DNA of 64,000 nt from Actinomycetales bacterium (GTDB lineage Bacteria; Actinomycetota; Actinomycetes; Actinomycetales; Microbacteriaceae): assembly GCA_038251725.1 (NCBI GenBank), contig JBBSBA010000006.1:4308-68307 (forward strand), given 5' to 3'. The translations under genes and the position numbers were made by a program. Shown here piece by piece: positions 11,083-25,946 of this stretch; the stretch's first letter is position 1; each line of letters begins with the position of its first letter. The notes below the pieces were generated by a model, which was given only the letters and a program-made list of their open reading frames with translations, searched no databases and was not told the origin of the DNA.

Positions 11083-12012
11083 TCAGCTGACGATGAAGAA
11101 CTGCTCGCCGATCTCCACGCGTGTTCCGCGGCTCAGCCGGTACCGCCTGTTGGGCTGGCAGCGCACCGCGGCCGAATCGGGCTCGCGGATGATCGTGCCG
11201 TTTCCCGAGAACCGGTCCATGATCCAGAAAATGCCGCCATCCTGCCCGAACTCGAGGTGTACCTTCGAGACCGATCGGCTGGGGTCGAGCACGCGAACGA
11301 GTTGATCGAAATATTCGTTGGGCTCGGACCGCGGGTTGCGCCCGATGAGGCCCGTGCCATAGACGGTGAAGCTCTCCCCCGTGCTGAACTGCAGAACGAA
11401 GCGTTCTCCCGTGCGGCCAGCCCGAGAGATTCGTGTGGCCTCGAGGTCCGCGGATTCGTCGAACGGTGCGGCCCGTGACGCGCCGGACTCGACGAACACC
11501 GGACTCGCGGGCGCCGGACTCGCGGGCGCGGGACTGGTGGGCGCGGTCGGCGGCGGAGCCGCGAGCGGGATGACCGATTCGGGCATTGCGTTGGCGCTCC
11601 CGGACCGCGTGGCCGCCTCGAAGTCGGGCACGCGGTCGACCAGTCGCGGAATGGGAGCTTTCGGGATGGCGGGCGCCCGCGGCACCGGCACCGGCACCGG
11701 CACCGGCACCGGCACGATGATGGCGGTGTCCCGGGAACTCCCGAAGTCCTCGCTTGCCGCCCGCGAGACGAATCCGCACTCACCACAGAAGATATCGTCC
11801 TGTGCCATGGGGGCGCCGCACTGCGCGCAGGTCGGGATGCCGATGCCGTTGGCACCCGGCTCGACCAGACTGGGAACGGCGATCCCGGCGCCGTCCGGGT
11901 CAACGCCGGGACGAGAGTCCCCTCGATGCGAGTAGTCGGCGACCGCACGGCCGCACTCACCGCAGAAGAGCGCGCCGGCGGGCAGCTCGGTGCCGCAATA
12001 GGTGCACGTCAC
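11083..12012 (-). CDS. Double zinc-ribbon + Pro-rich linker + FHA domain protein
   Basis: CTYC..FCGECG and CAQC..FCGECG; FHA motifs IGRNP, SVSKVH, SGNGT. Confidence 0.88.
   Translation of the reverse strand: MTCTYCGTELPAGALFCGECGRAVADYSHRGDSRPGVDPDGAGIAVPSLVEPGANGIGIPTCAQCGAPMAQDDIFCGECGFVSRAASEDFGSSRDTAIIVPVPVPVPVPVPRAPAIPKAPIPRLVDRVPDFEAATRSGSANAMPESVIPLAAPPPTAPTSPAPASPAPASPVFVESGASRAAPFDESADLEATRISRAGRTGERFVLQFSTGESFTVYGTGLIGRNPRSEPNEYFDQLVRVLDPSRSVSKVHLEFGQDGGIFWIMDRFSGNGTIIREPDSAAVRCQPNRRYRLSRGTRVEIGEQFFIVS
11681..11716. repeat. Hexamer tandem repeat (GGCACC)5 + GGCACG encoding a Val-Pro run
   Basis: Six in-frame units read directly in the linker of the zinc-ribbon FHA gene. Confidence 0.9.
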
Positions 12013-12042: not shown

Positions 12043-14445
12043 CTATCTCTTGAACAGTCTCTTGACACTATATCCACCGAGTGAACGCAGCGAGATCGCC
12101 GCCTTGATGCGCTCCCACCGGCTGCGTGAGTCGCTCATCGAGTGCCGCAGGTCGGTGACCGCACGCCACACCTGGTCTGCCTCGTCCTGGCCTGGTTCGT
12201 CGGGCGAGAACACCGCGCGATCGGCCACCGCGGCCAGCACCAGCGACGGCAGCCCGCCGGCGGTCGCGGCCACCTCGGTTCGGGTGGGTGAGACCGGCGG
12301 CTCGAAACCGTGGTCGACGACGGCGTCGGCGAATTCCTGCCAGCCGCCGCTGATCCGCTGGATGGCGGTCGGCGCCCGTCGGCGCAGGATTCGTCTCCGG
12401 AGCTTCGCCGCGACGATCGCGAGAAAGGGCGCAAGCACGATGGCGACGGCCAGCGCGATCCAGGCCGAGACCTGGAGCACAACGAGAAGAACGGCAAGCA
12501 GTGGGTTGCCCTTCGCCGTCTGGTCCTGCGTGCTGTCTGGCGGGGGCTGCGCGTTGTGGCTGGCCGGCGGCTCCACCGGGGGCTGCACCGGCGACTGTGG
12601 GCGGGCGATCGACGTCGGCAACTGCGCCTGGTCGGGTGGGATGACGCGCACCGGCGGGGTCGGATCGATCGTGACCCAGCCGAAGCGAGCCGTATCCACC
12701 TCGATCCAGGCCGAGATGTCCTTGCCGAGCACCTCGGTCGGACCCTGCGTGTTCACCGCGGGCACGAATCCGAAGACGACCCGGGCGGGGAAGCCGAGCT
12801 GACGCGCCATGAGGGCGGCGGTAACCGAGTACTGCTCCTGGTCTCCGATCATGACCTGGTCGGTGAGCAGTTGGGTGATGCGGTCGGCCGCATGGCCGGA
12901 CCGGCTCGCCGGCTGCTGCGGGTCGACACCATGGCTGATGTAGCCGGTGCGCTTGAGGGCGGCGATCATGGCGGTCAGGCGGGCGCCCGGGCTCGTCTCC
13001 GAGCGGGTCCACGCATCGAGCGTCGACGTGAGCTGGTCGGGCAGGGCCGCCGTCCGCGGCACGCTTGACGTGCCCGGTCGGAGGGTCGCGAGCTGGTTCT
13101 CGGTGGGCTGGCGCGGCACCAGGGCGTCGAGCGTGTAATTGTCACCGGAGTGCAGTTGCTGCACGACGGCGGCAGTGCCGCTCGTGTCGTTGTAGTAGAA
13201 CGAATCGCGAAGTGCCGACGCATCCGATCCCGAGAACGTCACGCTCTCGAACTTGCCGATGGTGGGCAGCCAGACGCCGGTGTAGTCGCCGACGGTCACA
13301 TGCAGCGACACGGTCGAGCCGACCGTGCCGGATTGGTTGAAGGTCGACGGCACCCGGGTGAACGAACCCGATTCGCTTGAGACCGCCGCGCTGCCGACCG
13401 AGTAGACGATGCCGTCGTAGGTGTCGAGGGTCGCGATGCGGATGCGGTCCCCGTTCGACAGTCCGCTCACCGTGAGCATGGTGGCATTCGCCTGAGCCGG
13501 CTCCTCGTAGAAACGGAACCCGCTGAGCGGGCTCGCGTACACCCGCGGGTTGAAAGGCTGCACGATGGCGTCACGGAGCACTTGCCGGTGCGCCGTTGGG
13601 GGCAGGGCGATCGTCGCTCCGACCGCGCCTCCGGCGGCGAGCAGCACAATGAGCCCGGCTCCGAGAATCGTGCGGAATCCGGCGAAGCTCGTGTCCGCTG
13701 CGGTTTCGAGTGGTCGCCCGTCGGCGTCGAGGGCCCGGGCGGCGAGAATCCGGATTGACGCGCGCCGACGGTACCAGCGCCGCCACACCAGCCAGCCGAG
13801 CGAGGTCGCGAGCAGCCCGAGCGAGAGTTCGAGCGGCCAGGTCGCCGTGTCGGGCCCGAAGATGAGCGCGGTGATGAACAGGGCGATCGGGGCGAGGACG
13901 CCGAGCTCGCCCCAGCGCGCGCGAAGCCCGACCGACAGTCCGACGACGGTCGTGACGAGCACGAGGATGAAGGCGGGCACGAGAAGCGACTGGTAGGAAC
14001 CGACCGGGAGGGTGATCGTCAGCAGTTGCTTCCAGCTGAGCGCGGTCGCCCGCAGCAGGTCGAGTTCGCCCTGCACCGTCGGAAGCACGCCGTAGATCGC
14101 CTCGTCCGGCACCGCGAGCGGCACGCCGAACAGGAGGTAGACCACGGCGGTCGCCAGTGTGAGGGTGAGGGTCGACCATCGCTTGATGGCCCCGAAGAGG
14201 GCGACGGCCGAGCCGAGCAGGATGCTTGCCGCGATCAGCATCACGAGCCGGGAACCCTGGTAAATGGGCCAGAGCGCGGCGGACGCGACCGCGATGGTGA
14301 GCCACGCCAACGCCGTGGTGGCGGCGGCGAACCCGGGCGAGAGTGGCGCAACACCGCGGGCGCGTCTCCGCGCGCGGCGGCGCACCTCTACGCGGGAGCG
14401 GCGCTTGCTGTCGATGCGTCGAACGCTGTCGGATCCGCTACTCAT
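12043..14445 (-). CDS. Multi-TM transglutaminase-like domain protein (TgpA-like), predicted catalytically degenerate
   Basis: About 7 N-terminal TM helices; core GDQEQY..MARQLGFPARVVFGF..SAWIEV..GWVTIDPTP; Pro-rich linker and a further TM helix. Confidence 0.85.
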   Translation of the reverse strand: MSSGSDSVRRIDSKRRSRVEVRRRARRRARGVAPLSPGFAAATTALAWLTIAVASAALWPIYQGSRLVMLIAASILLGSAVALFGAIKRWSTLTLTLATAVVYLLFGVPLAVPDEAIYGVLPTVQGELDLLRATALSWKQLLTITLPVGSYQSLLVPAFILVLVTTVVGLSVGLRARWGELGVLAPIALFITALIFGPDTATWPLELSLGLLATSLGWLVWRRWYRRRASIRILAARALDADGRPLETAADTSFAGFRTILGAGLIVLLAAGGAVGATIALPPTAHRQVLRDAIVQPFNPRVYASPLSGFRFYEEPAQANATMLTVSGLSNGDRIRIATLDTYDGIVYSVGSAAVSSESGSFTRVPSTFNQSGTVGSTVSLHVTVGDYTGVWLPTIGKFESVTFSGSDASALRDSFYYNDTSGTAAVVQQLHSGDNYTLDALVPRQPTENQLATLRPGTSSVPRTAALPDQLTSTLDAWTRSETSPGARLTAMIAALKRTGYISHGVDPQQPASRSGHAADRITQLLTDQVMIGDQEQYSVTAALMARQLGFPARVVFGFVPAVNTQGPTEVLGKDISAWIEVDTARFGWVTIDPTPPVRVIPPDQAQLPTSIARPQSPVQPPVEPPASHNAQPPPDSTQDQTAKGNPLLAVLLVVLQVSAWIALAVAIVLAPFLAIVAAKLRRRILRRRAPTAIQRISGGWQEFADAVVDHGFEPPVSPTRTEVAATAGGLPSLVLAAVADRAVFSPDEPGQDEADQVWRAVTDLRHSMSDSRSRWERIKAAISLRSLGGYSVKRLFKR

Positions 14446-15866
14446 ACTGCCGCCGACCGGGCAAGAGACTTCTGCAGTTCTTCGAGATACCCGATGGTCA
14501 ACACGCTCAGTCCGGCCACGCGGCGCAGCCCAGGCACGATATCCGGATCGCAGACGACGGCCACGACCTCGACTCCGGGCGGGAACTTGGTCGATGCCGC
14601 CCGCAGTTCCGTAACGGTCGTGAGCGATCCGCAGATGAGAAAGGCCACGGAGATGCCGGTGACCTCGTCGGCGGCCACGCGCGCGACATCCGTCATCCCG
14701 AGCGCCGACTCCTCGTGCTCGACGACGGCGAGGTCATCGAGCAGGCGCGTCCGGGTGAGTGTGTTGAGATGGCGCACGGCAAGCACCTTGCGTTTGGCGA
14801 ACTCCGCCGTCTTCTCGCCCACCACGACGGCCACGTTGCGGGCATCCTGGATGGCACGGGCCCCGAGCGAACCGGCAACGCTCACCGCCATTTCGAACTC
14901 GTCTTCCGTGGCATAGTCCGAAGAGGCGAGGCTCAGCGCGATCATGAGGTGGCTCCGCCGGGTCTCTTCGAATTGGCGCACCATATACCGGCCGGTCTTC
15001 GCGGTGCTCTTCCAGTGGATGAACCGACGCTCGTCCCCGGGAATGTATTCGCGCAGCGCATGGAAGGACACATCGCTGTTCGACAGGTCCCGGGTGGGGT
15101 TGCCCTCGAGGTCGCGCACGAAGCCGGTGCTGGTCGAGGGGATTCCGATGGTGCGGGGGTGGATGAACAGTTCCGTGGACTCGGTCCAGACCAGCTCACG
15201 GCGGACCAGGCCGACCGGGTCGGCACGCACCGTGCGAACCGGGCCGATCGAGAGAATCCCCCGGCGGGCCGTGGGAACCGGGAATTCGTGGCTGAAGGTC
15301 GCGCCCCGCGAGAGCCCTGGCATGGCGATCTCGGTCAGCCCGCGCCCGATCGGCACCTCAACCTTCACTCCGATGAGGCGATGACGGGTGGGATTCTGCA
15401 CGGTGATCAGCCCGGTGGCCCGCTCGCCGACGACCACGCGGCTGTGCGGAACGCTGAGCTGGATGAGGAAGGCATTCCGGCCGATGAGGTAGATCGCGGC
15501 GACAACGACCAGCACGGTTCCGGCCCAGGCCACGGCCACGAGCTCGACCCAGCCGAGGATGTAGCCGCACAGGAACGCCAACGGCACGATCACGAGCATC
15601 GCCCAGCCGAGCGGGGTGACCACGGTAGAAACGCGACCGAGCCACTGGCCGGTCAATCCGCCGATCGCCCGGGCGAAGCGGACGAGAATGATGATGGCGT
15701 CGGCGAGGAACCCGGTGCGGGCGCCGACGATGCGGGTGCGCGCGTTGGTGAGCCCCGTGGTGGCCGTTCTGTGCGGGGAGGTCGCCGAGGCACGCGACGG
15801 GTGTGCGGACTGGCCTCGCGCCGCGCCGGACGCCGCCGGGGGCACCGACCCGCTCCGATTGCTCAC
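14442..15866 (-). CDS. DUF58 domain protein with N-terminal TM helices
   Basis: FHALREYIPGDERRFIHWKSTAK, MVRQFE; directly follows MoxR; start and stop overlap both neighbours. Confidence 0.9.
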   Translation of the reverse strand: MSNRSGSVPPAASGAARGQSAHPSRASATSPHRTATTGLTNARTRIVGARTGFLADAIIILVRFARAIGGLTGQWLGRVSTVVTPLGWAMLVIVPLAFLCGYILGWVELVAVAWAGTVLVVVAAIYLIGRNAFLIQLSVPHSRVVVGERATGLITVQNPTRHRLIGVKVEVPIGRGLTEIAMPGLSRGATFSHEFPVPTARRGILSIGPVRTVRADPVGLVRRELVWTESTELFIHPRTIGIPSTSTGFVRDLEGNPTRDLSNSDVSFHALREYIPGDERRFIHWKSTAKTGRYMVRQFEETRRSHLMIALSLASSDYATEDEFEMAVSVAGSLGARAIQDARNVAVVVGEKTAEFAKRKVLAVRHLNTLTRTRLLDDLAVVEHEESALGMTDVARVAADEVTGISVAFLICGSLTTVTELRAASTKFPPGVEVVAVVCDPDIVPGLRRVAGLSVLTIGYLEELQKSLARSAAV

Positions 15867-16834
15867 ACCGCTTGCCTGTCACTCGGCGGCGGCGTCTCGA
15901 TGAGAAGCTGGCTGATGATGCTCGACGCGGTCACGCCGTCGAATTCAGCCTCGGGGTCCAGCACGAGGCGATGGGCGAGCACCGGTTCGGCCAGTGCCTT
16001 CACGTCATCCGGAATCACGTAGTGTCGGCCGTTCGCCGCCGCGAGCGTCTTCGCCGTGCGGATGAGCGCGAGCGCGCCGCGCACGCTCACGCCGAGGCGC
16101 ACCTCGGTGGCGGACCTGGTGGCCTCGACGAGACGCGAGACATAGTCGTTGATCGAGGGGTCGACGTGCACGGTGCGCGCGAGCGCGCCCATCTCGACGA
16201 TGACCTCGTCGGTGACGATGGGCGGAAGGATCGTGTCGTGCGCCTTGACGCCCGCCCCCTCGAGAATTCGCACGGTCGAGGCGTGGTCGGGGTAGCCGAT
16301 CGACGCCTTCATGATGAAGCGGTCGAGCTGTGCCTCCGGAAGTCGGTAGGTGCCGGCCTGTTCGATCGGATTCTGGGTGGCGATCACCATGAACGGGGCA
16401 CCGACGTCGTGTGAGATGCCGTCCACCGTGACGCGGCTCTCCTCCATCACCTCGAGCAGGGCCGACTGGGTCTTCGGGCTGGCCCGGTTGATCTCGTCGG
16501 CAAGCACGATGTGGGCGAATACCGGCCCACGGTGAAACTCGAATTCGCCGACGCCCTGGTCGTAGATGCTGACGCCGGTGATGTCGCCGGGGAGCAGGTC
16601 GGGGGTGAACTGGATGCGGCTCGTCGTTCCCTTGACGCTCTGCGCCATGGCTCGCGCGAGCGACGTCTTGCCCGTTCCGGGGAAGTCTTCGAGCAGCAGG
16701 TGGCCCTCGCTCAGCAGGGCGGTGAACGACAGCTTGATGACGAAGGTCTTGCCGAGCAGCACCTGGTCGACGTTCGCCACGAGGCGATTGAAGATGTCGG
16801 AAAACCAGGCCGCCTGCTCAGGTGTCATCGTCAT
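15863..16834 (-). CDS. MoxR-family AAA+ ATPase
   Basis: EDFPGTGKT, RIQFTPDLLPGDITG, LADEINRASPKTQSALLE, ATQNPIE, LPEAQLDRF. Confidence 0.95.
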   Translation of the reverse strand: MTMTPEQAAWFSDIFNRLVANVDQVLLGKTFVIKLSFTALLSEGHLLLEDFPGTGKTSLARAMAQSVKGTTSRIQFTPDLLPGDITGVSIYDQGVGEFEFHRGPVFAHIVLADEINRASPKTQSALLEVMEESRVTVDGISHDVGAPFMVIATQNPIEQAGTYRLPEAQLDRFIMKASIGYPDHASTVRILEGAGVKAHDTILPPIVTDEVIVEMGALARTVHVDPSINDYVSRLVEATRSATEVRLGVSVRGALALIRTAKTLAAANGRHYVIPDDVKALAEPVLAHRLVLDPEAEFDGVTASSIISQLLIETPPPSDRQAV

Positions 16835-16870: not shown

Positions 16871-19800
16871 TTACTGGACATTACCGGCATTGTCGTACCG
16901 GATCCTGTAGGTCTGGCCGCCATTGGCTGTCACGATGATCGTGAGCAACGGCGTGGTGTTCGGCGGGACGATCGCGAGGCACTGCCCGCCCTGCGTGGTG
17001 TCGGCCTTGATCGGCGTCTCATTAGAGCCGGAGCCGCAGGAATACTGGACGTTCTCATACGAACCGCTCGGCCAGCGGGACCAGGTGAAGGTGCCGCTCT
17101 CGTCCTGGGGGTTGGTCGGATTGGTGACCGGGGTGAAGGCTGGCGTGTCGATGCGGGGATCGACGGGCATTCCCACGTGGAAGGACGCCGACCAGTTGGA
17201 CTGGCAGACGATGGCGCCGTCCGGGAAGGTACGGCAGGCGCGCACCTCGACCGAGATGTCGTGTCCGTACTGGAGACCGTCCCCGGTGAGCAGCGCTCCG
17301 AACGCGATCGGTCCGTGTTCGGTGGCCGGAACCTGGTTGCCCTGGAGCCGGTAGTAGAACGTGTAGGAGCCGGAGAGCCGGGCGCCGATCGAGGCGGCGG
17401 TGAGCGCATAGTCGAACGTCGAACCCGACTTCGTCGGGCCGCTCGTCGAGATCGCGGTCACGACGCCGGGGCTCGTGTGGGCCACTACCGCGGGGCTGGA
17501 CGTGCAGCCGATGCTGTTCGTCGCGAGCACGAGGAGTGAGTAGCTGGAATCGTTCGAGAGGCCCGAGAAGGTCGTCGCGGTGGCGGTTCCCATGTCCTGG
17601 CTCGTCGAGCCGCCCGGATTCGGGTTGGCGCAGGTCGGCATCGCGCCCGTGTAGGCGATGGCGGTGTAGCCCGAGATCGCGCGCCCGTTGTCGCTGAAGG
17701 CCCCAGCCCAGCTGAGCGCGATCGCCGCATTGGCGGAATTCGCCGTTGGCTGACCAGCCGAGATCGGCCGACCGGCCGGTATGCCGTTCGCCACCGCGGC
17801 GTTCCAGGCGGCGAGGCTCGGCAGCGCCGAGTTGCGCGGGCTCACCGAGATGGACACCGGCTGTCCGTTGGTGAGGCCGAAGACATCGGTTGTGCACGTG
17901 ACGGCGCTGCACACGGACGGGGCGATGTTGCTCGCGGATCCCCCCGTGATCAGCACGTAGTTGTTCACGGCGCTGCCGGCTGCCGGAGTCGTCACCGCGT
18001 TCCAGGAGATTCGCAGGCCCCCGTCGAGCGGCGCCGCGCCCAGCCCCGACGGGGCCGGGGGGATGACATCCGACCAGACTGTGCTCGGGAACTCCACGGC
18101 ATCCGAGCTGCCGATGGCGTTCTTCGCGACGATCTGCAGCCGAACGCCGTTCGACGGCCCGTTGCCGGGCGTCACAACGGCGCACACGGCACCGGCACAG
18201 GCGGTGGTCGACACCAGGACTCCCGCCCCGGAGTGCATGAGCACGTCATAGCCGGTGATGGGCGAGTTGTTTGCCGCTCCCGGGGTCCACCGCACCGTCA
18301 GGGTGTGGTCGCCGAACGAGGTGACGTCCACGGCCGTCACCGGATCGGGCCTGTCCTGGACCGAGACGGTGACCGAGCCCCAGACGTAGCGGGCGGGATC
18401 GCCCGTGGCATCCGCCACCTCGTACTGGAGGGTGGTGTCGACGGGCTTGGCGGATGCCGACGCGGTCACGGTGAGTCGGCTGTTGTCGGCACTCGGGGTG
18501 ATCGTCAGGCCTGCCGGAATCGCGCCGCCGTCGAGACCACGGATCGCCATCACCCTGAGCGGCTTGCCGGGGAAGGGATTGGTGGCCTCGTCGTTCGCAA
18601 GCACATTCACCGTGGCGCTCTGTCCGCGCGGGATGATCACGGAGTCCGGCGCCGGTTCGGCGAGTGGGCGGCTCGAGGCGACGACGTTGAGCACGATCTT
18701 GCCCGACTGCCCGGTCGTGATCTTGTCCTTCACTCCGAGCACGATCGCCGTGCTGGAGTTCCTGACCGCGCTGTCATTCGCCCTCAGCGTGAGCTTCTGG
18801 CCGGTCAGCGTGTAGCTGAAACCCGTCGGGAGGGGGGTGAGCACGGTGTACGCGAGCTCGGCGATGTCCTTGGGATAGGGATAGTTCGTGAGCTTGAGCA
18901 GGTCGAGTTCCCGCGATGTTCCTGGCTCGAAATCGATGATTCCGCCGACGAACTCGGGGGGTTGGTTTTGTCGTGGTGTCACCTTGATCGGGAGAACCAG
19001 GGTGGCCTTCCGGCCGTTCGGATCGGTCGCTGAGGCGCCGTCGGTCACCGAGAACGAGATCGAGGCCGGTCCGAAGTACTTGTTGGCCGAGGTGAACTGG
19101 AGGGTGTGGTCGTTCACCATCAGGTTCGAGCCGTCCGAGTGGGTGGCCTGCACGCTCGCGGTGTCGGTGAGCCGCACGTGTTTGCCCTCGACCGCGATCA
19201 CGTAGTCGTTGAGATCGATGGTGAGCGTCGACTCGCTTGCGACGGTGAGCGGCACAGCCTTGCGGTTGAGTTGCGGCAGTGCGTCGTTGAGGCCGGGCAC
19301 CCACACGAAGGCGTAGGAGACCACGCTCGCGTCGTCGGGATTCGCGACCGCGAAGGGGATGATCTGGCTCGTCTTCTTGACCGTCACATGGATTCGTTTG
19401 TTGGCCGTCACGCCCGCGTCCGTCGAGTACCCGGGAAGCACCGAGACCGCGAGGGTGGAGACGTTCCCGTCGGCGAAGAAGACGTTGTTCAGCACGTTGA
19501 CATCGAGGGAGTCGCGGCCGAGCACGTCGGTGAGAGTCAGCACGGTGTCGCGAACCACCGGGAAGGCGCGCGGGGCATCCGCGCTCACGACGACGGTGAG
19601 GAACGCCGAGCTCGTTCCACCGAACGTGTTCTCGATCGTGTAGATGAGCCCGTAGCTTCCCGGCTTGGTCGGCGGGGTCACCCGGATGACGTCGCCCTCG
19701 ATCTTCGCGATGATGTCCTTGGCGTTCGGCTCGACCTTCGTGATGGTGAGGGTGCCGCCATCCGGATCGGAATCGTTCGCGAGCACCTGAACAGAGACCG

Positions 19801-22765
19801 TGCCGCCGGGGCGTATCCGCACCAGGTCAGGCACGGCCACGGGATTGCGGGCGACGTCGAGCTTCGGGCTGATGCCGACCCGCACGATGCCGGTGGCACG
19901 GGCCCCGAGGCTGTCGATCACCGTGTAGGTGAAGGAGTCGGTGCCGGCGGAGTAGCTTCCGGCGAGATAGTCGATGTAGTCCGCCCCCACCGTCGTGACA
20001 GAGCCCTTGTCCGGGTTCGTCGCCTGCCCGAGCAACTGCACCGAGTCGCCATCGGGATCGATACCGGTGAGCGGAATCACGATGCGCACCGTCTCGCCGG
20101 CGATCACACGCGCGGTCACCGTCGTCGGCACCGGCGGGTTGTTGGTGGCCACGACGGGCTCACGGACGGCGATCTTCACCTGGGCCTGGGCGACTTGGCC
20201 GTGGGTGTCCGAGACCGAGTACACGGCGGTGAAGTCGCCGGTCTTGTCCGGCGCGAGGTAGCGGAGCACGTTTCCGGAGGCGAACAGCAGTCCGGAGCCG
20301 GCCGGCAGCGGGGTCGACAGCTTCGGGTTGAGCGTGAGCTGCTCGCCATTCGGCTGCACGTCGTTATCGAGAACCGGGATGTCGATCGCGTCGCCTACGC
20401 GCACGGTCACGCTGTCGTCGTTCGCGATCGGGGGTTGGAACTGGGTCGGCGTCGGGATCTCCACCACGGTGACGACACCCTCGGCGTCGGCGAGGCCGTT
20501 GCTGATCCGATAGTTGAAGGTGACCGGCCCGGACTTCAACGGTGCGGCGAGGGTGACCCGGATCGCCCGTTGCTCGATCACCTGGGCGGTCACGCCGGAG
20601 TTCGGGGCAAGATTGTAGACGCCGGTGACGAGAAGCACCCCGCCGGCCGGATCGATGTCAGTCGATGCGACATCCACCGTCTGGGTGCTGAGCGACTGCA
20701 CGAAGATCGTCTTCGGAATGGTGATCGGCTTGGTGTTCGGGTCCGGTTGCGCCGCGACGTCGATGCGCACGATCCCGTTCGCGGTCTGGTCCCCATCGTG
20801 CACCACGAAGTCGATGTAGTGCGTGCCCACCTGGTCGCTCGTGAACCGGAAGGTGCCAGCCTCGAGGCTGGGGATGATCGTCACGCCGCTCTTGGCCGGC
20901 ACGCTCGCGAGACGCAGGTTTCCGGTGCCGCCGCGCACGTGGTCGAGCGGCCGCACCGTGACGTCCTGTCCGGAGTAGGCCTGCACCACGAACGGATCGG
21001 GGATGAGAGGCACCTGACCGGCCAGCGTTACCCTGACCGTGAGGGCACCGGTGCCCTCGGCCGTGCCGTCGGAGACGACGAGCGCCACCGTTCTCAGTCC
21101 CGTCGTCGTTGCACCGTCCGTGTAGACGACCGTGCCCTCCGGCTTGTAGCTTGCCGTGTTGGGCGCGGCGGTCGACGCGGAGGTCAGGTAAAAGGGGTCG
21201 CCATCCGGGTCGACCCAGTCGCCAAGCACAGAGGTGGTCACCCGGCCGCCGGCCGCGACGACGGCCCTGGTCTGTCGCACCTGGTACGGAGGCGAGTTCT
21301 GCTGGGGGGTTCGCACCGTCACGGTGACCTTGGCGCTCGCCGTGCCGCCGCGGCCATCGCTGATCGAGTAGCCGAACGTGACGGTGCCGCTCACCGTCGG
21401 CTTCAGCGTGATCTGCAGCTGCTGGCTGTTGTTGATCAGGTCGATCCGACCCACCGACGGGTCGATGGGGGTGAAGTCGGTGATGACGATAACGTCGCCG
21501 TTCGGGTCGTAGTCGTTGAGCAACACCGGAAGAACGCTCGTGCGGCCCGGGCGCGCGCCGAAGGCGTCATCGACCGCCACGGGGGGCTGCTGGATCTTCT
21601 CGTATTCCGGAGGCGTGTCCTCGTTGTTCTGCGCGACCAGGCGATGGTCTTTTCGCACGGTGATCAGATCCGACCAGTTATCTATCAACTGACCCGACTG
21701 TTGCACGGCCCAGATGCCACCATCATGCGGGTCGCTCAGCACGACCCGGTCGCCGTTCGAGGCGAAGGTGAGGTCGGATGCCGTGGCTGGCATCGAGGCA
21801 AGAGCGAGTTGGGCTCCGGCGGCCGTACCGCATTGGCGCCAGGCCGTCCCGATCGACCAGGCCGCGAACGTGCACCCTCCCATCGCGCTCGGCGCGGCGG
21901 CGATCCCGCCCTGTCCGCTGACGATGCGCACGGGGCTGCCACCGCCGAGCGGCACCCGGAGAAGCCCCGTCGCGTCGGCGATCAGAACGCCGTCACCGCT
22001 CGTCGATGGCTGTTGCAGAACCGGGTTGCTCCCGACCGGGATGAATGAGGCGAGCTTCACCGTCCCCGCGTCGGTGAGCATGGTGCGACCCACCGAGTCG
22101 AAGAGTACCCAGTGTCCGCCGACGGAGGTGATCGTCACGTCGCGGCGCGCTCCGCCGATCCGCGCGGAGGTGGTGTCGGCCAGGGCATTGGAATGGGCCG
22201 CATCGACCCGGTAGACCTGGCGGGTATCCGCCGAATACCCGAAGAGCATGCCGTCGGGCGTCACGCTCGTGATGGCGTTCGCGCCGAGGTTGAGGGTCGG
22301 CTGCGCCTGCGCATTGAAGATGGGCAACTGACTGAGCGGCACGATCCAGACCTCGCCGGTGCCGCCGGCGGCGATCACGACATTGTCGCCGGCAAGCGAG
22401 AGCTGTGGATCCTGCGGAGGCAGGGGAACGCTGTCGAGCACCTTCGAAGTAGCCGGATCGACGATGTCGACCTTGCTGTCGGTGCGATCGAAGAGCAGCA
22501 CCGTCGCGCCGCGCTGGATCACACGAATGTCGGCGCCGCTCGAGGCGACGACCGTGTTGAGCGCGAGCACCTGGGTGTTGGCGCGACCGATCACCTGCGA
22601 TGAGCCGTTCGCCACCCAGACCGAACCATCGTTGAGATCGAGTCGCTGCGCGGTATAGCCGGTCGAGACGATGGCGACGGTGGCGATGAGGGCGGCAATG
22701 ACCGAACCGCTCGTCGCCGTGGCGATGAGCGACCGGTGGCGGGAAATCCACTGTGTGATCGTCAT
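16871..22765 (-). CDS. Giant (~1964 aa) N-terminally anchored surface protein with tandem Ig/cadherin-like domains and C-terminal fibronectin type III domains
   Basis: Start re-picked at ATG 22765. Hydrophobic N-terminal helix; repeated PPxAxDD and DPxGD motifs (NDYDPNGD, DWVDPDGD, GIDPDGD, NDSDPDGG); Fn3-like segments (LTVRWTP..ITGY, LRISWNA, IALSWAG..ISGY); no LPXTG seen. Confidence 0.88.
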   Translation of the reverse strand: MTITQWISRHRSLIATATSGSVIAALIATVAIVSTGYTAQRLDLNDGSVWVANGSSQVIGRANTQVLALNTVVASSGADIRVIQRGATVLLFDRTDSKVDIVDPATSKVLDSVPLPPQDPQLSLAGDNVVIAAGGTGEVWIVPLSQLPIFNAQAQPTLNLGANAITSVTPDGMLFGYSADTRQVYRVDAAHSNALADTTSARIGGARRDVTITSVGGHWVLFDSVGRTMLTDAGTVKLASFIPVGSNPVLQQPSTSGDGVLIADATGLLRVPLGGGSPVRIVSGQGGIAAAPSAMGGCTFAAWSIGTAWRQCGTAAGAQLALASMPATASDLTFASNGDRVVLSDPHDGGIWAVQQSGQLIDNWSDLITVRKDHRLVAQNNEDTPPEYEKIQQPPVAVDDAFGARPGRTSVLPVLLNDYDPNGDVIVITDFTPIDPSVGRIDLINNSQQLQITLKPTVSGTVTFGYSISDGRGGTASAKVTVTVRTPQQNSPPYQVRQTRAVVAAGGRVTTSVLGDWVDPDGDPFYLTSASTAAPNTASYKPEGTVVYTDGATTTGLRTVALVVSDGTAEGTGALTVRVTLAGQVPLIPDPFVVQAYSGQDVTVRPLDHVRGGTGNLRLASVPAKSGVTIIPSLEAGTFRFTSDQVGTHYIDFVVHDGDQTANGIVRIDVAAQPDPNTKPITIPKTIFVQSLSTQTVDVASTDIDPAGGVLLVTGVYNLAPNSGVTAQVIEQRAIRVTLAAPLKSGPVTFNYRISNGLADAEGVVTVVEIPTPTQFQPPIANDDSVTVRVGDAIDIPVLDNDVQPNGEQLTLNPKLSTPLPAGSGLLFASGNVLRYLAPDKTGDFTAVYSVSDTHGQVAQAQVKIAVREPVVATNNPPVPTTVTARVIAGETVRIVIPLTGIDPDGDSVQLLGQATNPDKGSVTTVGADYIDYLAGSYSAGTDSFTYTVIDSLGARATGIVRVGISPKLDVARNPVAVPDLVRIRPGGTVSVQVLANDSDPDGGTLTITKVEPNAKDIIAKIEGDVIRVTPPTKPGSYGLIYTIENTFGGTSSAFLTVVVSADAPRAFPVVRDTVLTLTDVLGRDSLDVNVLNNVFFADGNVSTLAVSVLPGYSTDAGVTANKRIHVTVKKTSQIIPFAVANPDDASVVSYAFVWVPGLNDALPQLNRKAVPLTVASESTLTIDLNDYVIAVEGKHVRLTDTASVQATHSDGSNLMVNDHTLQFTSANKYFGPASISFSVTDGASATDPNGRKATLVLPIKVTPRQNQPPEFVGGIIDFEPGTSRELDLLKLTNYPYPKDIAELAYTVLTPLPTGFSYTLTGQKLTLRANDSAVRNSSTAIVLGVKDKITTGQSGKIVLNVVASSRPLAEPAPDSVIIPRGQSATVNVLANDEATNPFPGKPLRVMAIRGLDGGAIPAGLTITPSADNSRLTVTASASAKPVDTTLQYEVADATGDPARYVWGSVTVSVQDRPDPVTAVDVTSFGDHTLTVRWTPGAANNSPITGYDVLMHSGAGVLVSTTACAGAVCAVVTPGNGPSNGVRLQIVAKNAIGSSDAVEFPSTVWSDVIPPAPSGLGAAPLDGGLRISWNAVTTPAAGSAVNNYVLITGGSASNIAPSVCSAVTCTTDVFGLTNGQPVSISVSPRNSALPSLAAWNAAVANGIPAGRPISAGQPTANSANAAIALSWAGAFSDNGRAISGYTAIAYTGAMPTCANPNPGGSTSQDMGTATATTFSGLSNDSSYSLLVLATNSIGCTSSPAVVAHTSPGVVTAISTSGPTKSGSTFDYALTAASIGARLSGSYTFYYRLQGNQVPATEHGPIAFGALLTGDGLQYGHDISVEVRACRTFPDGAIVCQSNWSASFHVGMPVDPRIDTPAFTPVTNPTNPQDESGTFTWSRWPSGSYENVQYSCGSGSNETPIKADTTQGGQCLAIVPPNTTPLLTIIVTANGGQTYRIRYDNAGNVQ

Positions 22766-22775
22766 TTTTCGCTCA

Positions 22776-24230
22776 TCACCCCCCGAAGGCGACACACTTC
22801 TCTGCGCTCGGTGGACCGGTTCTGCCCTGACGGTTGACCGCCACGGTGATGCAGACCCGATCACCGGCCTTGGCGTCCTCGGCGAAGTAGCTGGAGGAGA
22901 CCTGCAGCGCCGTGCGGCCATCGCTCGTGGTGACCTGGTAGGTGTCCTGGGCCTTCAGGCCGGGATTACTCCAGCTGAACTTGATCGAACCGCTGGTGAC
23001 GGTCGCGGCGACGTTCGTCACCTGGGGGATGCCGTCGGAATTGGCCCGGATGAGCACGACGGTCACCGTCGCTCCCAGCCCGATCACGAGCAAGGCGCTC
23101 GCGACGAGGCCCCAGGCGAGCAGCCGCATGCCCCGGCCGTGCGTGCCCGGTCGCGTTCCGCTGCTCTGCAGAGCGCCCTTGACGGCCATCCCCTTCTGCG
23201 CCGGCTGGCCGGCGGTGTCTCGCATCAGCGTGCCGATCGGCGTGTACGTGGACGGGACGGCGCGGCGGCGCCGGCGCCCGCGTGCGGTCGGCACGACTCC
23301 GCCGACACCACGGATGCGCGTGCGGTCCTCGAGGTCGGCGACGGTGGCCAGGGCCCAGTCGTCCATCGCCACCTCGATCGGCGTCTGTGGCACGGCGAGT
23401 TCGGTCTCGATGGACTGCAGCTCGCGCACGAGTTCGAGCACGCTCGCCGGGCGGTTCTCCGGTTTGCGCGACATGGCCTGGGCCAACATCCGCTCGAGAC
23501 TCGGCGGGACGTCGGAACGCCCGATCGGCTGGGGCCGTGCCCGGTTGATGCGGGAGATGAGGTCCACCGAGTTGTTCGGCTGGCCCGGAATCTCGAAGGG
23601 CGAGCGGCCGGCGAGCAGTGAATAGACCGTGGCGGCGAACGACCACACCTCCGACGCGATGCTGCCCGGCGTCTCATCCATCAGCACCTCCGGTGCCGAC
23701 CATGGGATGGAGAGCCCGACCGATTCGTCGGTTTCGGCCCCGCTCAGGGTCGACGCGATACCGAAGTCGGAGAGCACCGGATGCCCGTATGCCGTGAGCA
23801 GGATATTTGACGGCTTGATGTCGCGGTGCAGCACTCCGGCGCGGTGCGCGGTCTCGATAGCGCTGCCGATCTTCACGGCGATGCGCAGCACCTCCGGCAC
23901 CGGTATGCGTTCGCGGCGGTAGCGTTCGCTGAGCGATGACGAACAGAGTTCCATCACGAGGTAGGGGCGGCCGTCGGACGACACGCTGGCCTGGTAGACG
24001 GTGAGAATCGACGGATGCGAACTCAGCTGCGCCATGAGGTTGGCCTCGGACTGGAACATCTGGCGAACCTGGTCATTGACCACCTCGCTCAGCAAGACCT
24101 TGACGGCGACCTGCCGGCGCGGCATGTTCTGTTCGTAGAGGAAGACGTCGGCGAACCCACCGGAGCCGAGCACATGGATGGTCGAGAATCCGGGCAGCAC
24201 GGGAGGAGTCGACGGCAATCGACGCGCCAT
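22776..24230 (-). CDS. Hanks-type transmembrane Ser/Thr protein kinase with a small extracellular Fn3-like domain
   Basis: LGSGGFADV, VAVKVL, HRDIKPSNIL, DFG, WSAPE; TM helix LLAWGLVASALLVIGLG; strong SD AGGAGGAG before ATG 24230. Confidence 0.94.
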   Translation of the reverse strand: MARRLPSTPPVLPGFSTIHVLGSGGFADVFLYEQNMPRRQVAVKVLLSEVVNDQVRQMFQSEANLMAQLSSHPSILTVYQASVSSDGRPYLVMELCSSSLSERYRRERIPVPEVLRIAVKIGSAIETAHRAGVLHRDIKPSNILLTAYGHPVLSDFGIASTLSGAETDESVGLSIPWSAPEVLMDETPGSIASEVWSFAATVYSLLAGRSPFEIPGQPNNSVDLISRINRARPQPIGRSDVPPSLERMLAQAMSRKPENRPASVLELVRELQSIETELAVPQTPIEVAMDDWALATVADLEDRTRIRGVGGVVPTARGRRRRRAVPSTYTPIGTLMRDTAGQPAQKGMAVKGALQSSGTRPGTHGRGMRLLAWGLVASALLVIGLGATVTVVLIRANSDGIPQVTNVAATVTSGSIKFSWSNPGLKAQDTYQVTTSDGRTALQVSSSYFAEDAKAGDRVCITVAVNRQGRTGPPSAEKCVAFGG

Positions 24231-24300
24231 GGCTCCTCCTTCGTCGACGCCGGTGGGGGCCGATCGGTTCCCGTGCCGCGTCGGATTGCCCCAGTGTTCT

Positions 24301-24306
24301 ATTCTA
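24301..24306 (-). promoter_or_regulatory. Candidate -10 box (TAGAAT) of an internal promoter upstream of the kinase
   Basis: TAGAAT on the minus strand in the AT-rich 162-bp gap between PP2C and kinase; no clear -35. Confidence 0.35.
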
Positions 24307-24392
24307 GACACGCCTTGAATTCGGCCGGTGGAACAAATCTGCTGGTCAGGACCGTTTTTTACCCCCCTTCGGGGGGCAGTAATATTGCGCCA

Positions 24393-25232
24393 CTATTGCG
24401 CAAGGGTGGGGCCGGGGCGTGGAATGGTGTTCTCGAACTCCCCGGGGCCGGAACTCTCGAGCACGTCGATGACGACGGTCGTGATGTTGTCCCGTCCGCC
24501 GCCCTCGAGCGCCGCGTTCACGAGGGCGCGGGCGGTGTCTTGCGCCGAGAGGCCCCAGGCGAGCACACGGCGGATGCCCCCGGCATCCACCTCCTTCGTC
24601 AGTCCGTCGGAACAGAGCAGCAGTCGCATGCCCGCGCGCACCGGCACCACCCAGTAGTCCGGATCCGCCGCGACGTTGAAGCCGACCGCGCGGGTGATCA
24701 CGTTGCTGTCCGGATGGTTTTCGGCGTCTTCTGCCCGGATCACGCCGGCGTCGACGAGCTCCTGAACGACCGAGTGGTCAACCGTGACCTGCGCGAGAGT
24801 CTCGCGGTCGAACAGGTAGACCCGGGAATCGCCCACGTTGAAGACGGTCCAGAACGGTTCGTCGTATTGCAGGGAGAGGGCGACGCCGGTGACGGTCGTG
24901 CCGACCCCGAGTTGCTTCTCGTCCGCCGCGAGTCCGATGTCGATGGTTGCGGAGCGCAGGCCGTTCTCGATGGTGTCGGCATCGGCGAAATCGCCGGTCA
25001 CCGCCTCGTCGAGACGAGAGACGACCGCAGCGCTGGCGACGTCACCGGCCGAGTGGCCACCCATTCCATCGGCCACGGCGAAAATAGGCGGTCGCGCGAG
25101 AAAACTGTCTTCGTTGTGGGCACGCCGACGGCCGATGTCGGTCGCCGCCCCCCAGGACAGCACCAGCCGGGCATCCGGGTCGCCGGGTACGGCCACGGGG
25201 TATTCCGCGACGCCTTGGCCGATCTCGGTCAC
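24393..25232 (-). CDS. PP2C/PPM-family Ser/Thr phosphatase (soluble)
   Basis: TDIGRRRAHNED, VADGMGGH, NVGDSRVY, LCSDGL, GGRDNIT; start probably GTG 25232. Confidence 0.93.
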   Translation of the reverse strand: MTEIGQGVAEYPVAVPGDPDARLVLSWGAATDIGRRRAHNEDSFLARPPIFAVADGMGGHSAGDVASAAVVSRLDEAVTGDFADADTIENGLRSATIDIGLAADEKQLGVGTTVTGVALSLQYDEPFWTVFNVGDSRVYLFDRETLAQVTVDHSVVQELVDAGVIRAEDAENHPDSNVITRAVGFNVAADPDYWVVPVRAGMRLLLCSDGLTKEVDAGGIRRVLAWGLSAQDTARALVNAALEGGGRDNITTVVIDVLESSGPGEFENTIPRPGPTLAQ

Positions 25233-25271
25233 GAAAGCCTCTCGCCTAGCGGGTGGGTGCACTGCATTGGT

Positions 25272-25946
25272 CTACACCACCCGCTCGATGGGGAGGATCT
25301 CGACGGTGTTGCCGTCACCAATATCCACTATCGTTCCGGCGGAAACCACGAGTGACTCACCCTGGCGCAGTTTTTGCACCGAGGATCCAGGGATCTTGAC
25401 GACAGTGCCGTTGGTCGAGCGCAGGTCCGTGACGATCACCGTGGATCCCTGCTGGCGCAATTCGACGTGCGTGCTCGACACCTCGCGGCCAGGCGACGGA
25501 ACCCACACCAGTCGAGGAAACGGTGCGATGGTTATTCGTGGAAGCACCGGCTTGCGTCCGATCAGCGCCGGGGCATCGAGCGGAATGGGCTCCTGCCGGT
25601 TGACCCGGATGCGGTGCCACGGCACCGTGAACGGCACTGGATCGTTCGCGACCCCCGCTCGCGCGGCCACCGGGCGCTCTTCGAATCGCGGGGGTCCCCG
25701 CGGAGGTTCGACGAGGACGTGCGGCACCTCCGCCGCGGACCTCTCACGGAGCTCGCCCGGTTCGGGAAGCGGGAGCGGTTCGGGACGGGCCGGCGCCTCG
25801 TCGAGGTCAGCCGGGCGGGCCCGGATGATCGTGTCGGCCTCGAGATCATGCGGCTCTGCGGCTCCCCCCGTGTCCTGGCCGGGGTGCGCCCGGATGACGG
25901 TGTCGTCGCCATCGTGCGGTTGCATGTCCCCATTGTCTCGCGACAC
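25272..25946 (-). CDS. FHA domain protein with an acidic/Pro-rich N-terminus
   Basis: IGRKP, EVSSTH, DLRSTNGT; N-terminus carries repeated DxTIIR-like motifs. Confidence 0.87.
   Translation of the reverse strand: MSRDNGDMQPHDGDDTVIRAHPGQDTGGAAEPHDLEADTIIRARPADLDEAPARPEPLPLPEPGELRERSAAEVPHVLVEPPRGPPRFEERPVAARAGVANDPVPFTVPWHRIRVNRQEPIPLDAPALIGRKPVLPRITIAPFPRLVWVPSPGREVSSTHVELRQQGSTVIVTDLRSTNGTVVKIPGSSVQKLRQGESLVVSAGTIVDIGDGNTVEILPIERVV

Follow-up and report, generated by a model that had tools for sequence, protein, structure and literature searches.

A cysteine-free TgpA-like membrane protein in an Esr/PFNA-type gene cluster of Microbacteriaceae is a probable pseudo-enzyme and noncatalytic scaffold for a giant surface protein

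We analyzed a 64,000-nucleotide stretch of DNA from an Actinomycetales bacterium of the Microbacteriaceae (contig JBBSBA010000006.1, positions 4,308 to 68,307, assembly GCA_038251725.1; hereafter the window), with a focus on the gene at 12043 to 14445. This gene encodes an 800-residue membrane protein related to Pseudomonas aeruginosa TgpA, and it lies in a gene cluster of the Esr/PFNA type; its product belongs to the EsrD/Tgm family and is referred to below as the EsrD-type protein. We found that the transglutaminase-like domain of this protein has lost its catalytic Cys and His, that the loss is conserved across the family, and that both the fold and the gene order around it have been kept. 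We propose, with a probability of roughly 0.7, that this EsrD/Tgm-type TgpA paralog is a long-standing pseudo-enzyme that serves as a noncatalytic retainer or scaffold for a giant surface protein and is coupled to the MoxR and DUF58 proteins encoded beside it.

The only protein in the PDB that matched the EsrD-type protein by sequence was P. aeruginosa TgpA (6g49). In a gap-free alignment of the two, the TgpA motifs GFCAHY, DAHAWVE, and VDPT paired with GDQEQY, DISAWIE, and IDPT, respectively, and in a paralog encoded in the same genome GYCIHF, LHAWPE, and FEPT fell in the same columns. In place of the Cys-His-Asp/Glu triad of active transglutaminases, the EsrD-type protein thus has Gln536, Ser578, and Asp594 (Table 1). 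No cysteine occurs among its 800 residues, so a misalignment cannot hide a thiol nucleophile. Its sequence rules out canonical thioester transamidation or proteolysis by the protein, and the catalytic Cys through which TgpA-type proteins act is absent from it and from its whole clade. The original prediction, made from the DNA letters and their open reading frames, had described a transglutaminase-like domain without its catalytic Cys and His, in which Gln of GDQEQY stands in the nucleophile place, Ser of SAWIE stands in the His place, and only the Asp of DPTP is left. Alignment to Pfam Transglut_core and to TgpA, the positions of the CAG and TCG codons, the pairing of Asp594 with the Asp of VDPT, and the fold model all bore this out.

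Both by sequence and by fold, the protein belongs to the transglutaminase-like superfamily (PF01841; papain-like fold). The Pfam Transglut_core match covers residues 480 to 595 (E value, 9.4e-12; 45.6 bits, with a cut-off of 23). An AlphaFold2 (AF2) model built on 41 family members had a mean predicted local distance difference test (pLDDT) score of 84, and its best Foldseek matches were the periplasmic domain structures of TgpA, 6g49 and 6g4h (E value, 4e-11; target TM score, 0.65; ∼300 columns). In this model, the nucleophile helix begins exactly at residue 536, and the two strands that follow either contain or immediately precede residues 578 and 594, which is the papain/transglutaminase layout. 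From hydropathy and the AF2 model together, the 800 residues are predicted to begin with seven transmembrane (TM) helices, continue with an extracytoplasmic beta-sandwich and the dead transglutaminase core, cross the membrane once more in an eighth TM helix, and end in a DUF4129-like tail in the cytoplasm. The tail matched DUF4129 only below the cut-off (E value, 0.002), NCBIfam had no model for the protein, and PF11992 (TgpA_N, DUF3488) was precomputed for many of its close homologs. The architecture is nonetheless of the TgpA type, as the protein is collinear over 634 residues with the same-genome paralog, which carries TgpA_N, Transglut_core, and DUF4129. Three Arg-rich stretches, in the N-terminal tail, after TM6 (RRWYRRR), and after TM8 (KLRRRILRRR), would by the positive-inside rule place residues 285 to 645 outside the cell, as in TgpA, and the DUF4129-like tail inside.

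The triad loss characterizes the family as a whole and does not represent a lesion. Among the closest homologs, all from Microbacteriaceae and 58 to 97% identical (120 sequences and the window's own, 121 together), GDQEQY was found in 114 and SAWIE in nearly all, whereas Cys was found at the former nucleophile column in 0/121; 97 of the 121 had no Cys anywhere in the protein. An exhaustive phmmer search over 1.84 billion cluster representatives returned 909 matches below 1e-30. The best 150 of these (33 to 58% identical, most of them full length) shared the pattern G-[DN]-x-E-Q-[YF] without exception, where x was D, Q, A, E, G, S, H, or P but never Cys, and the nucleophile Cys was missing in 149/149 representatives at 50% clustering, down to 33% identity. 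A back-translated pattern located relatives in at least 521 species genomes (the best 80 matches were all from Microbacteriaceae), and two surveys of 301 genomes each, one class-wide and one order-wide, gave strong matches in at least 13 families. Among 69 strong full-length loci fetched from these surveys, the same Cys-less motif was found with one exception. A dozen further genes, present as second copies in genomes of Microbacteriaceae and of Nocardioides-like bacteria, had it as well. The exception (L208; G304:C73:33074-34714) is EsrD-type and reads MVGDCEQYA, with Cys at the variable column, but its His and Asp columns hold Ile and Phe; a Cys in such a setting is expected for a freely varying position. 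Bifidobacterium tgm genes, in the alignment of the PFNA paper, read MVGDSEQY / DVTAWVE / FYPTP or MVGDSEQY / DIEAWVE / FHPTP, and 9/9 Bifidobacteriaceae loci had the same Cys-less motifs. Cluster representatives from the Pauljensenia/Actinomyces sp. HPA0247 group, of the Esr2-layout type, had Asp at the Cys column and no ectodomain Cys in 120/120 cases. Overall, ∼500 homologs from at least 13 actinomycete families carry G-[DN]-x-E-Q-[YF], in which x varies freely; the conservation of the substitutions in homologs had been suggested as a check on the original prediction, and the Cys loss held family-wide.

These data bear directly on the idea that the substitutions arose by recent inactivation, that the gene is turning into a pseudogene, or that the assembly contains a sequencing artifact. 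Nothing beyond the bare substitutions favors this idea. Against it, the gene has an intact reading frame and a translationally coupled start, close homologs share both altered motifs, and the loss is common to more than 500 genomes in a domain under strong constraint. We give it a negligible chance and regard it as already refuted by the conservation data.

We computed column entropies on the 41-sequence alignment. The transglutaminase core was the most conserved domain of the protein (mean entropy, 1.68 bits; 23/121 columns at least 90% conserved), but the former Cys column, 536, and the former His column, 578, were among the most variable, with entropies of 2.02 and 1.97 bits. Across the family, column 536 was D/Q/A/E/G/S/H/P and column 578 was S/H/T/A/D/R/Q, even though the two are flanked by invariant G534, E537, Q538, W580, and E582; column 594 was Asp in 118/149 representatives. 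A constrained fold and surroundings combined with unconstrained catalytic columns is the signature of a pseudo-enzyme. Upstream of these columns lies a family-specific motif, G517-H518-x-x-x-R522, which was invariant in alignment A1 and whose His and Arg were kept in 146/149 representatives, although H518 is replaced by Ser or Val in Pauljensenia-group proteins. We considered GDxEQY as a wholly new motif but rejected it, since canonical actinobacterial TgpA has both E-Q-[FY]-A and A-W-x-E as well (GYCEQFA, HAWPE). By this comparison, the E-Q-Y and A-W-x-E residues beside the lost Cys and His are ancestral TgpA features; what is derived in the EsrD-type family is limited to the Cys loss, the replacement of Tyr by Asp at 535, and the G-H-x-x-x-R motif.

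In the 149 representatives, His at 578 occurred only together with Asp at 536 (43/43 versus 0/86). Asp-His-Asp was the commonest state of the three columns, at ∼30% of representatives, whereas the window's protein has Gln-Ser-Asp. The independence of the association from phylogeny was tested on four usable pairs only, a test with no power. Patterns of this kind raise the alternative that the family is still an enzyme with a re-tooled site, formed from S514, H518, R522, and D535 with the ancestral E537, E582, and D594; as a new hydrolase or transferase center, it would covalently attach or would process the giant protein by a Ser/His or carboxylate/His mechanism. In line with this, G517-H518 and R522 were kept in 146/149 representatives and S514 and D535 were more than 90% conserved; the perfect co-occurrence of D536 and H578 suggests a functional pair in many members; and a covalent anchor, as hypothesized in a preprint on the Esr pathway (bioRxiv 10.64898/2026.09.08.750141), is compatible with the release phenotype reported there. 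However, no single candidate nucleophile occurs throughout the family. Residues at column 536 vary freely, and H518 was rejected as a universal replacement catalytic His because it is Ser or Val in the Pauljensenia group. D536 and H578 are both missing from the window's protein, the three triad columns hold Ser, Thr, and Tyr in Bifidobacterium proteins, and synteny and domains are conserved alike in the D-H-D, Q-S-D, and S-T-Y lineages. To our knowledge, no transglutaminase-fold enzyme works without a Cys or Ser nucleophile at the helix N terminus. We consider a re-tooled enzyme improbable.

The whole genome contained four Transglut_core matches. The paralog used above, a 780-residue protein encoded on contig C15 with TgpA_N, Transglut_core (78 bits), and DUF4129, reads SGYCIHFA / NLHAWPE / FEPT and is 22% identical to the EsrD-type protein over the 634 collinear residues. 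Its gene directly follows its own DUF58 and MoxR genes (trio L085:8171-12853). In this canonical trio, Cys and His are intact and Glu replaces Asp (FEPT); the trio adjoins an amino-acid permease gene and an F420 ligase gene. Weak class-wide matches to the EsrD-type protein were likewise canonical TgpA, with GYCEQFA / DAHAWPE / RFEPTP, in at least 12 families. On an unrooted maximum-likelihood tree of 99 ectodomains, the 19 proteins with the Cys formed one clade and 60 EsrD-type proteins formed a second, and the Shimodaira-Hasegawa-like approximate likelihood ratio test (SH-aLRT) support was 100 for both. A further 20 Cys-less proteins, from large-genome families, branched near the canonical clade. 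Presence or absence of the Cys required one change on this tree, and a single ancient loss would be the parsimonious reading, though not a proven one given that the tree is unrooted.

Several observations accompanied the survey. The Cys-less TgpA-like lineages outside the EsrD clade and near canonical TgpA read GTSEQFA / DALAWAE / FFPTP and GYAEQHA / QAHAWPE / FEPT, and their loci are from large-genome actinomycete families (L117-L122, L127, L130-L132, L141, L145, L169-L171). Four Microbacteriaceae genomes (G122, G139, G197, G531) gave three or four matches each, namely two or three EsrD-type proteins and a canonical TgpA, which suggests that some Microbacteriaceae have several Esr-type clusters per genome. 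A few records of metagenome-assembled genomes (L034; P0051; P0394) had organism labels that are implausible for actinobacterial-type genes: a Pauljensenia-type protein was labeled Isoptericola variabilis, and Microbacteriaceae-type genes were labeled Synechococcus sp. UW140 and Mucilaginibacter sp. Mis-binning or mislabeling of the contigs is the probable cause.

The genes around the EsrD-type gene are listed in Table 1. The gene lies directly downstream of those for MoxR and DUF58, as in TgpA-type loci; stop and start codons overlap as GTGA between MoxR and DUF58 and as ATGA between DUF58 and the EsrD-type gene. The order kinase, giant protein, MoxR, DUF58, transglutaminase-like protein, FHA protein, and EccC-like ATPase was found on one strand across 80 Microbacteriaceae species where the locus obtained was of sufficient length; in a minority of full-length Microbacteriaceae loci, tblastn gave no FHA or EccC-like match. 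The best NCBIfam matches of the FtsK/SpoIIIE ATPase were type VII EssC, EccCa, and EccCb, all below cut-offs, and no EccB, EccD, or mycosin gene was seen beside it within the window. The genome's only WXG100 gene is on another contig (G000:C13:41513-41764) and not by the EccC-like ATPase. The cluster has two FHA readers, the small protein at its head and the zinc-ribbon/FHA protein.

Table 1. Features of the EsrD-type protein and its gene cluster in the window
Feature	Position	Strand	Evidence or remark
EsrD/Tgm-type TgpA-like membrane protein, 800 aa	12043..14445	(-)	Translation, Pfam, hydropathy, AF2 and Foldseek
Transglut_core-like domain, residues 480-600	12646..13008	(-)	Pfam E 9.4e-12; mean entropy 1.68 bits
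Gln536, codon CAG at catalytic Cys position, motif G-D-Q-E-Q-Y	12838..12840	(-)	Alignment to 6g49 and paralog
Ser578, codon TCG at catalytic His position, motif D-I-S-A-W-I-E	12712..12714	(-)	Alignment to 6g49 and paralog
Asp594 codon, third triad residue kept, motif I-D-P-T-P	12664..12666	(-)	Alignment to 6g49
G517-H518-x-x-x-R522 motif upstream of core, family-specific	12880..12897	(-)	Alignments
EccC/EssC-like FtsK/SpoIIIE ATPase, two N-terminal TM helices	8058..10961	(-)	FtsK_SpoIIIE
Double zinc-ribbon and FHA protein (EsrG-like output protein)	11083..12012	(-)	Zn_Ribbon_1, DZR, FHA
DUF58 (vWA-like) membrane protein	14442..15866	(-)	Pfam DUF58 E 1.3e-12
MoxR AAA+ ATPase	15863..16834	(-)	AAA_3 E 4.7e-61, AAA_lid_2
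EsrA/FN3-like giant surface protein, ∼1965 aa from Met52 of the open reading frame	16871..22768	(-)	Pfam; AF2 and Foldseek
Membrane Ser/Thr protein kinase (EsrE/Pkb2-like)	22776..24311	(-)	Pkinase E 4.8e-41; one TM-like segment
PP2C phosphatase (EsrF/PrpC-like)	24393..25262	(-)	PP2C_2 E 1.9e-9
Small FHA-domain protein, head of cluster, upstream of PP2C	25272..25946	(-)	FHA E 3.4e-7

Three described systems resemble this cluster. TgpA (PA2873) is encoded after PA2875 (MoxR) and PA2874 (DUF58) in an operon and co-transcribed with them; it has an intact triad, shows in vitro transglutaminase activity, and is essential (PMC3507681). Like the EsrD-type protein, TgpA is polytopic, has an extracytoplasmic beta-sandwich and transglutaminase core and a DUF4129-like tail, and follows MoxR and DUF58. 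The two differ in that TgpA has Cys-His-Asp where the window's protein has Gln, Ser, and Asp and no Cys, and in that the window's gene sits within a larger kinase/giant-protein/FHA/EccC cluster in a genome that holds a separate canonical TgpA trio. Zhang and Aravind proposed MoxR-vWA-TGL as a membrane-proximal degradation system and described inactive TGL domains as peptide binders in eukaryotes (PMC3495828). Such inactive proteins include band 4.2/EPB42, Rad4/XPC, CC2D2A, and FBXO21 (PMC3495828, PMC10318531), which, like the EsrD-type protein, have kept the papain/transglutaminase fold and lost the catalytic residues, with a proposed or demonstrated role as peptide- or partner-binding scaffolds; unlike it, they are soluble, come from unrelated lineages, and are not membrane proteins coupled to MoxR and vWA.

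The second system is the Esr threat-sensing pathway of Schaalia odontolytica (Wang et al., Sept 2026 preprint, bioRxiv 10.64898/2026.09.08.750141), which comprises EsrA (a propeller with an Ig filament), MoxR, vWA, the "predicted transglutaminase" EsrD, a kinase, a phosphatase, and the FHA protein EsrG. According to the same preprint, 40% of 3502 loci adjoin esx genes and EsrG is sometimes fused to EccC; deletion of esrD1 releases the giant protein EsrA into the supernatant, as seen in the secretome; and EsrD is proposed to link EsrA covalently to the surface, with the catalytic residues not discussed. The window has the corresponding set: an EsrA-like propeller and Ig protein, MoxR, vWA/DUF58, the transglutaminase-like protein, a kinase, PP2C, an FHA output protein, and an EccC neighbor. 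We compared the EsrD-type protein with proteins of presumed relatives of S. odontolytica from the group of Pauljensenia sp. UMB3104 and Actinomyces sp. HPA0247, represented by a 2.4-Mb genome with two Esr-type clusters. Their transglutaminase-like genes matched the window's protein with tblastn E values of ∼1e-52 to 1e-54, and here they stand in for EsrD of S. odontolytica F0309; presumably, GTDB places S. odontolytica in the same genus as this group. The Esr1-layout cluster of this genome encodes PP2C and a 436-residue protein with a C-terminal FHA domain, and its transglutaminase-like protein reads GDDQQY / DIRAWVE / FDPTP. The second, Esr2-like cluster adjoins five subtilases and EccC, and its protein reads GDDEQY / DMHAWVE / FDPTP. 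The window's protein shares a clade with proteins of Esr1- and Esr2-like layouts, but where the preprint predicts a covalent linker, we found a whole clade without the Cys. Because the Cys is missing in these Schaalia-group relatives, a canonical transglutaminase step is unlikely.

The third system is the PFNA operon of Bifidobacterium, pkb2-fn3-aaa-atp-duf58-tgm with or without prpC and fha, in which Tgm is called "presumably a cysteine protease" (PMC6803598, PMC8430577). Tgm has the same gene order and family as the EsrD-type protein, and the window accordingly shows a kinase, an fn3 protein, a MoxR-type ATPase, DUF58, and a tgm gene in succession. The Bifidobacterium tgm product reads SxxGHGNYR / MVGDSEQY / DVTAWVE / FYPTP, so its triad columns hold Ser, Thr, and Tyr, in contrast to the Gln, Ser, and Asp of the environmental Microbacteriaceae window. 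Our literature search found no paper that calls the PFNA/Esr transglutaminase-like family catalytically dead.

The candidate partner of the EsrD-type protein is the giant surface protein encoded upstream. It consists of an N-terminal hydrophobic helix, a beta-propeller, Big_9/cadherin-like Ig repeats, and then fn3. The AF2 model of the propeller had a pLDDT of 84, and Foldseek matched it to the YVTN propeller 1l0q (E value, 1e-10) and then to BamB and others. The N-terminal helix (window 22660-22768) was as conserved as the propeller in 55 species, with A26, A32, S35, G37, Y38, A40, and Q41 nearly invariant, and in every family examined the propeller motif LNDGGVWV starts 10 to 15 residues past the helix. 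The invariant S35-x-G37 fits either a signal-peptidase site or a helix-packing motif. We also considered the conserved N-terminal Y-T-A-Q peptide as a Gln pseudo-substrate for the dead cleft; it was rejected, as it is nearly invariant in 55 Microbacteriaceae but not conserved in other families.

Helix packing enters into a further alternative, in which the membrane and cytoplasmic parts are essential as the partner of MoxR and DUF58, the ectodomain is a passive relic without a ligand, and the N-terminal TM helix of the giant protein packs on the TM bundle. The propeller-like conservation of that helix, with its invariant small residues A32, S35, and G37, would agree with this arrangement, as would the constant 10- to 15-residue spacing to the propeller in all families, the positively selected sites reported in the Tgm TM region (PMC6803598), and the good conservation of the cytoplasmic tail, in which 18/104 columns are at least 90% conserved. 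On the other hand, no region of the protein is more conserved than the ectodomain core, which is hard to reconcile with a relic, and S35-x-G37 fits a signal-peptidase site too; a cleaved Sec signal is predicted for EsrA1 (bioRxiv 10.64898/2026.09.08.750141). We therefore regard a passive ectodomain as unlikely.

Taken together, these data favor the EsrD-type protein as a pseudo-enzyme that retains the giant protein. That it is a pseudo-enzyme, as the original prediction held, is supported by the family-wide loss of the nucleophile, the freely varying former catalytic columns, and the intact paralog in the same genome; the accompanying proposal, that it may act as a scaffold or receptor on which the MoxR-DUF58 machine or the adhesin relies, also found support, in that the published release of the giant protein on deletion fits a retaining role. 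The EsrD-type protein is co-translated with MoxR and DUF58 inside the Esr/PFNA-type cluster. In the mechanism we propose, its outer dead domain, its TM bundle, or both would bind the giant beta-propeller/Ig protein and retain it noncovalently at the cell surface. The cytoplasmic tail would couple the resulting complex to the DUF58/vWA-MoxR module, and this module would in turn work with the Ser/Thr kinase, PP2C, the FHA output proteins, and the neighboring EccC-like ATPase. Four points weigh against this proposal. The release phenotype suits a covalent anchor as well as a noncovalent one; only gene context points to the binding partner and to the link with MoxR/DUF58; a re-tooled site could be assembled from H518, D535, E537, E582, or D594; and Asp-His-Asp in ∼30% of the family may be a sign that these members still perform some chemistry.

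A more specific model goes further, and we offer it tentatively, as possible but doubtful. All EsrD/Tgm proteins of Esr/PFNA clusters may be substrate-trapping pseudo-enzymes whose former transglutaminase cleft or adjacent TM bundle holds the EsrA filament noncovalently and reversibly, in a force- or conformation-sensitive manner, so that a ligand signal on EsrA would pass through EsrD and its DUF4129 tail to a vWA/MoxR module that gates the kinase. On this model, the covalent-anchoring step would be wrong, and the series from Asp-His-Asp to x-Ser/Thr-Asp would record the progressive loss of a useless center.

Two literatures, the PFNA papers and the 2026 Esr preprint, treat the EsrD/Tgm family as an enzyme, and routine annotation names its members "transglutaminase-like putative cysteine protease," which the triad loss corrects. 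On the alignment evidence, the outer domain of the family has no thiol nucleophile and its catalytic positions evolve freely, and anchoring would consequently need another mechanism, namely, binding and not cross-linking. This challenges one step of the current Esr model, the covalent anchoring of EsrA. In a pathway that has only recently been described, the EsrD-type protein represents a dead version of a known protein type. Many of the genomes with this family carry both a catalytic-type and a dead MoxR-DUF58-TgpA module, which makes for a natural comparison between the two.

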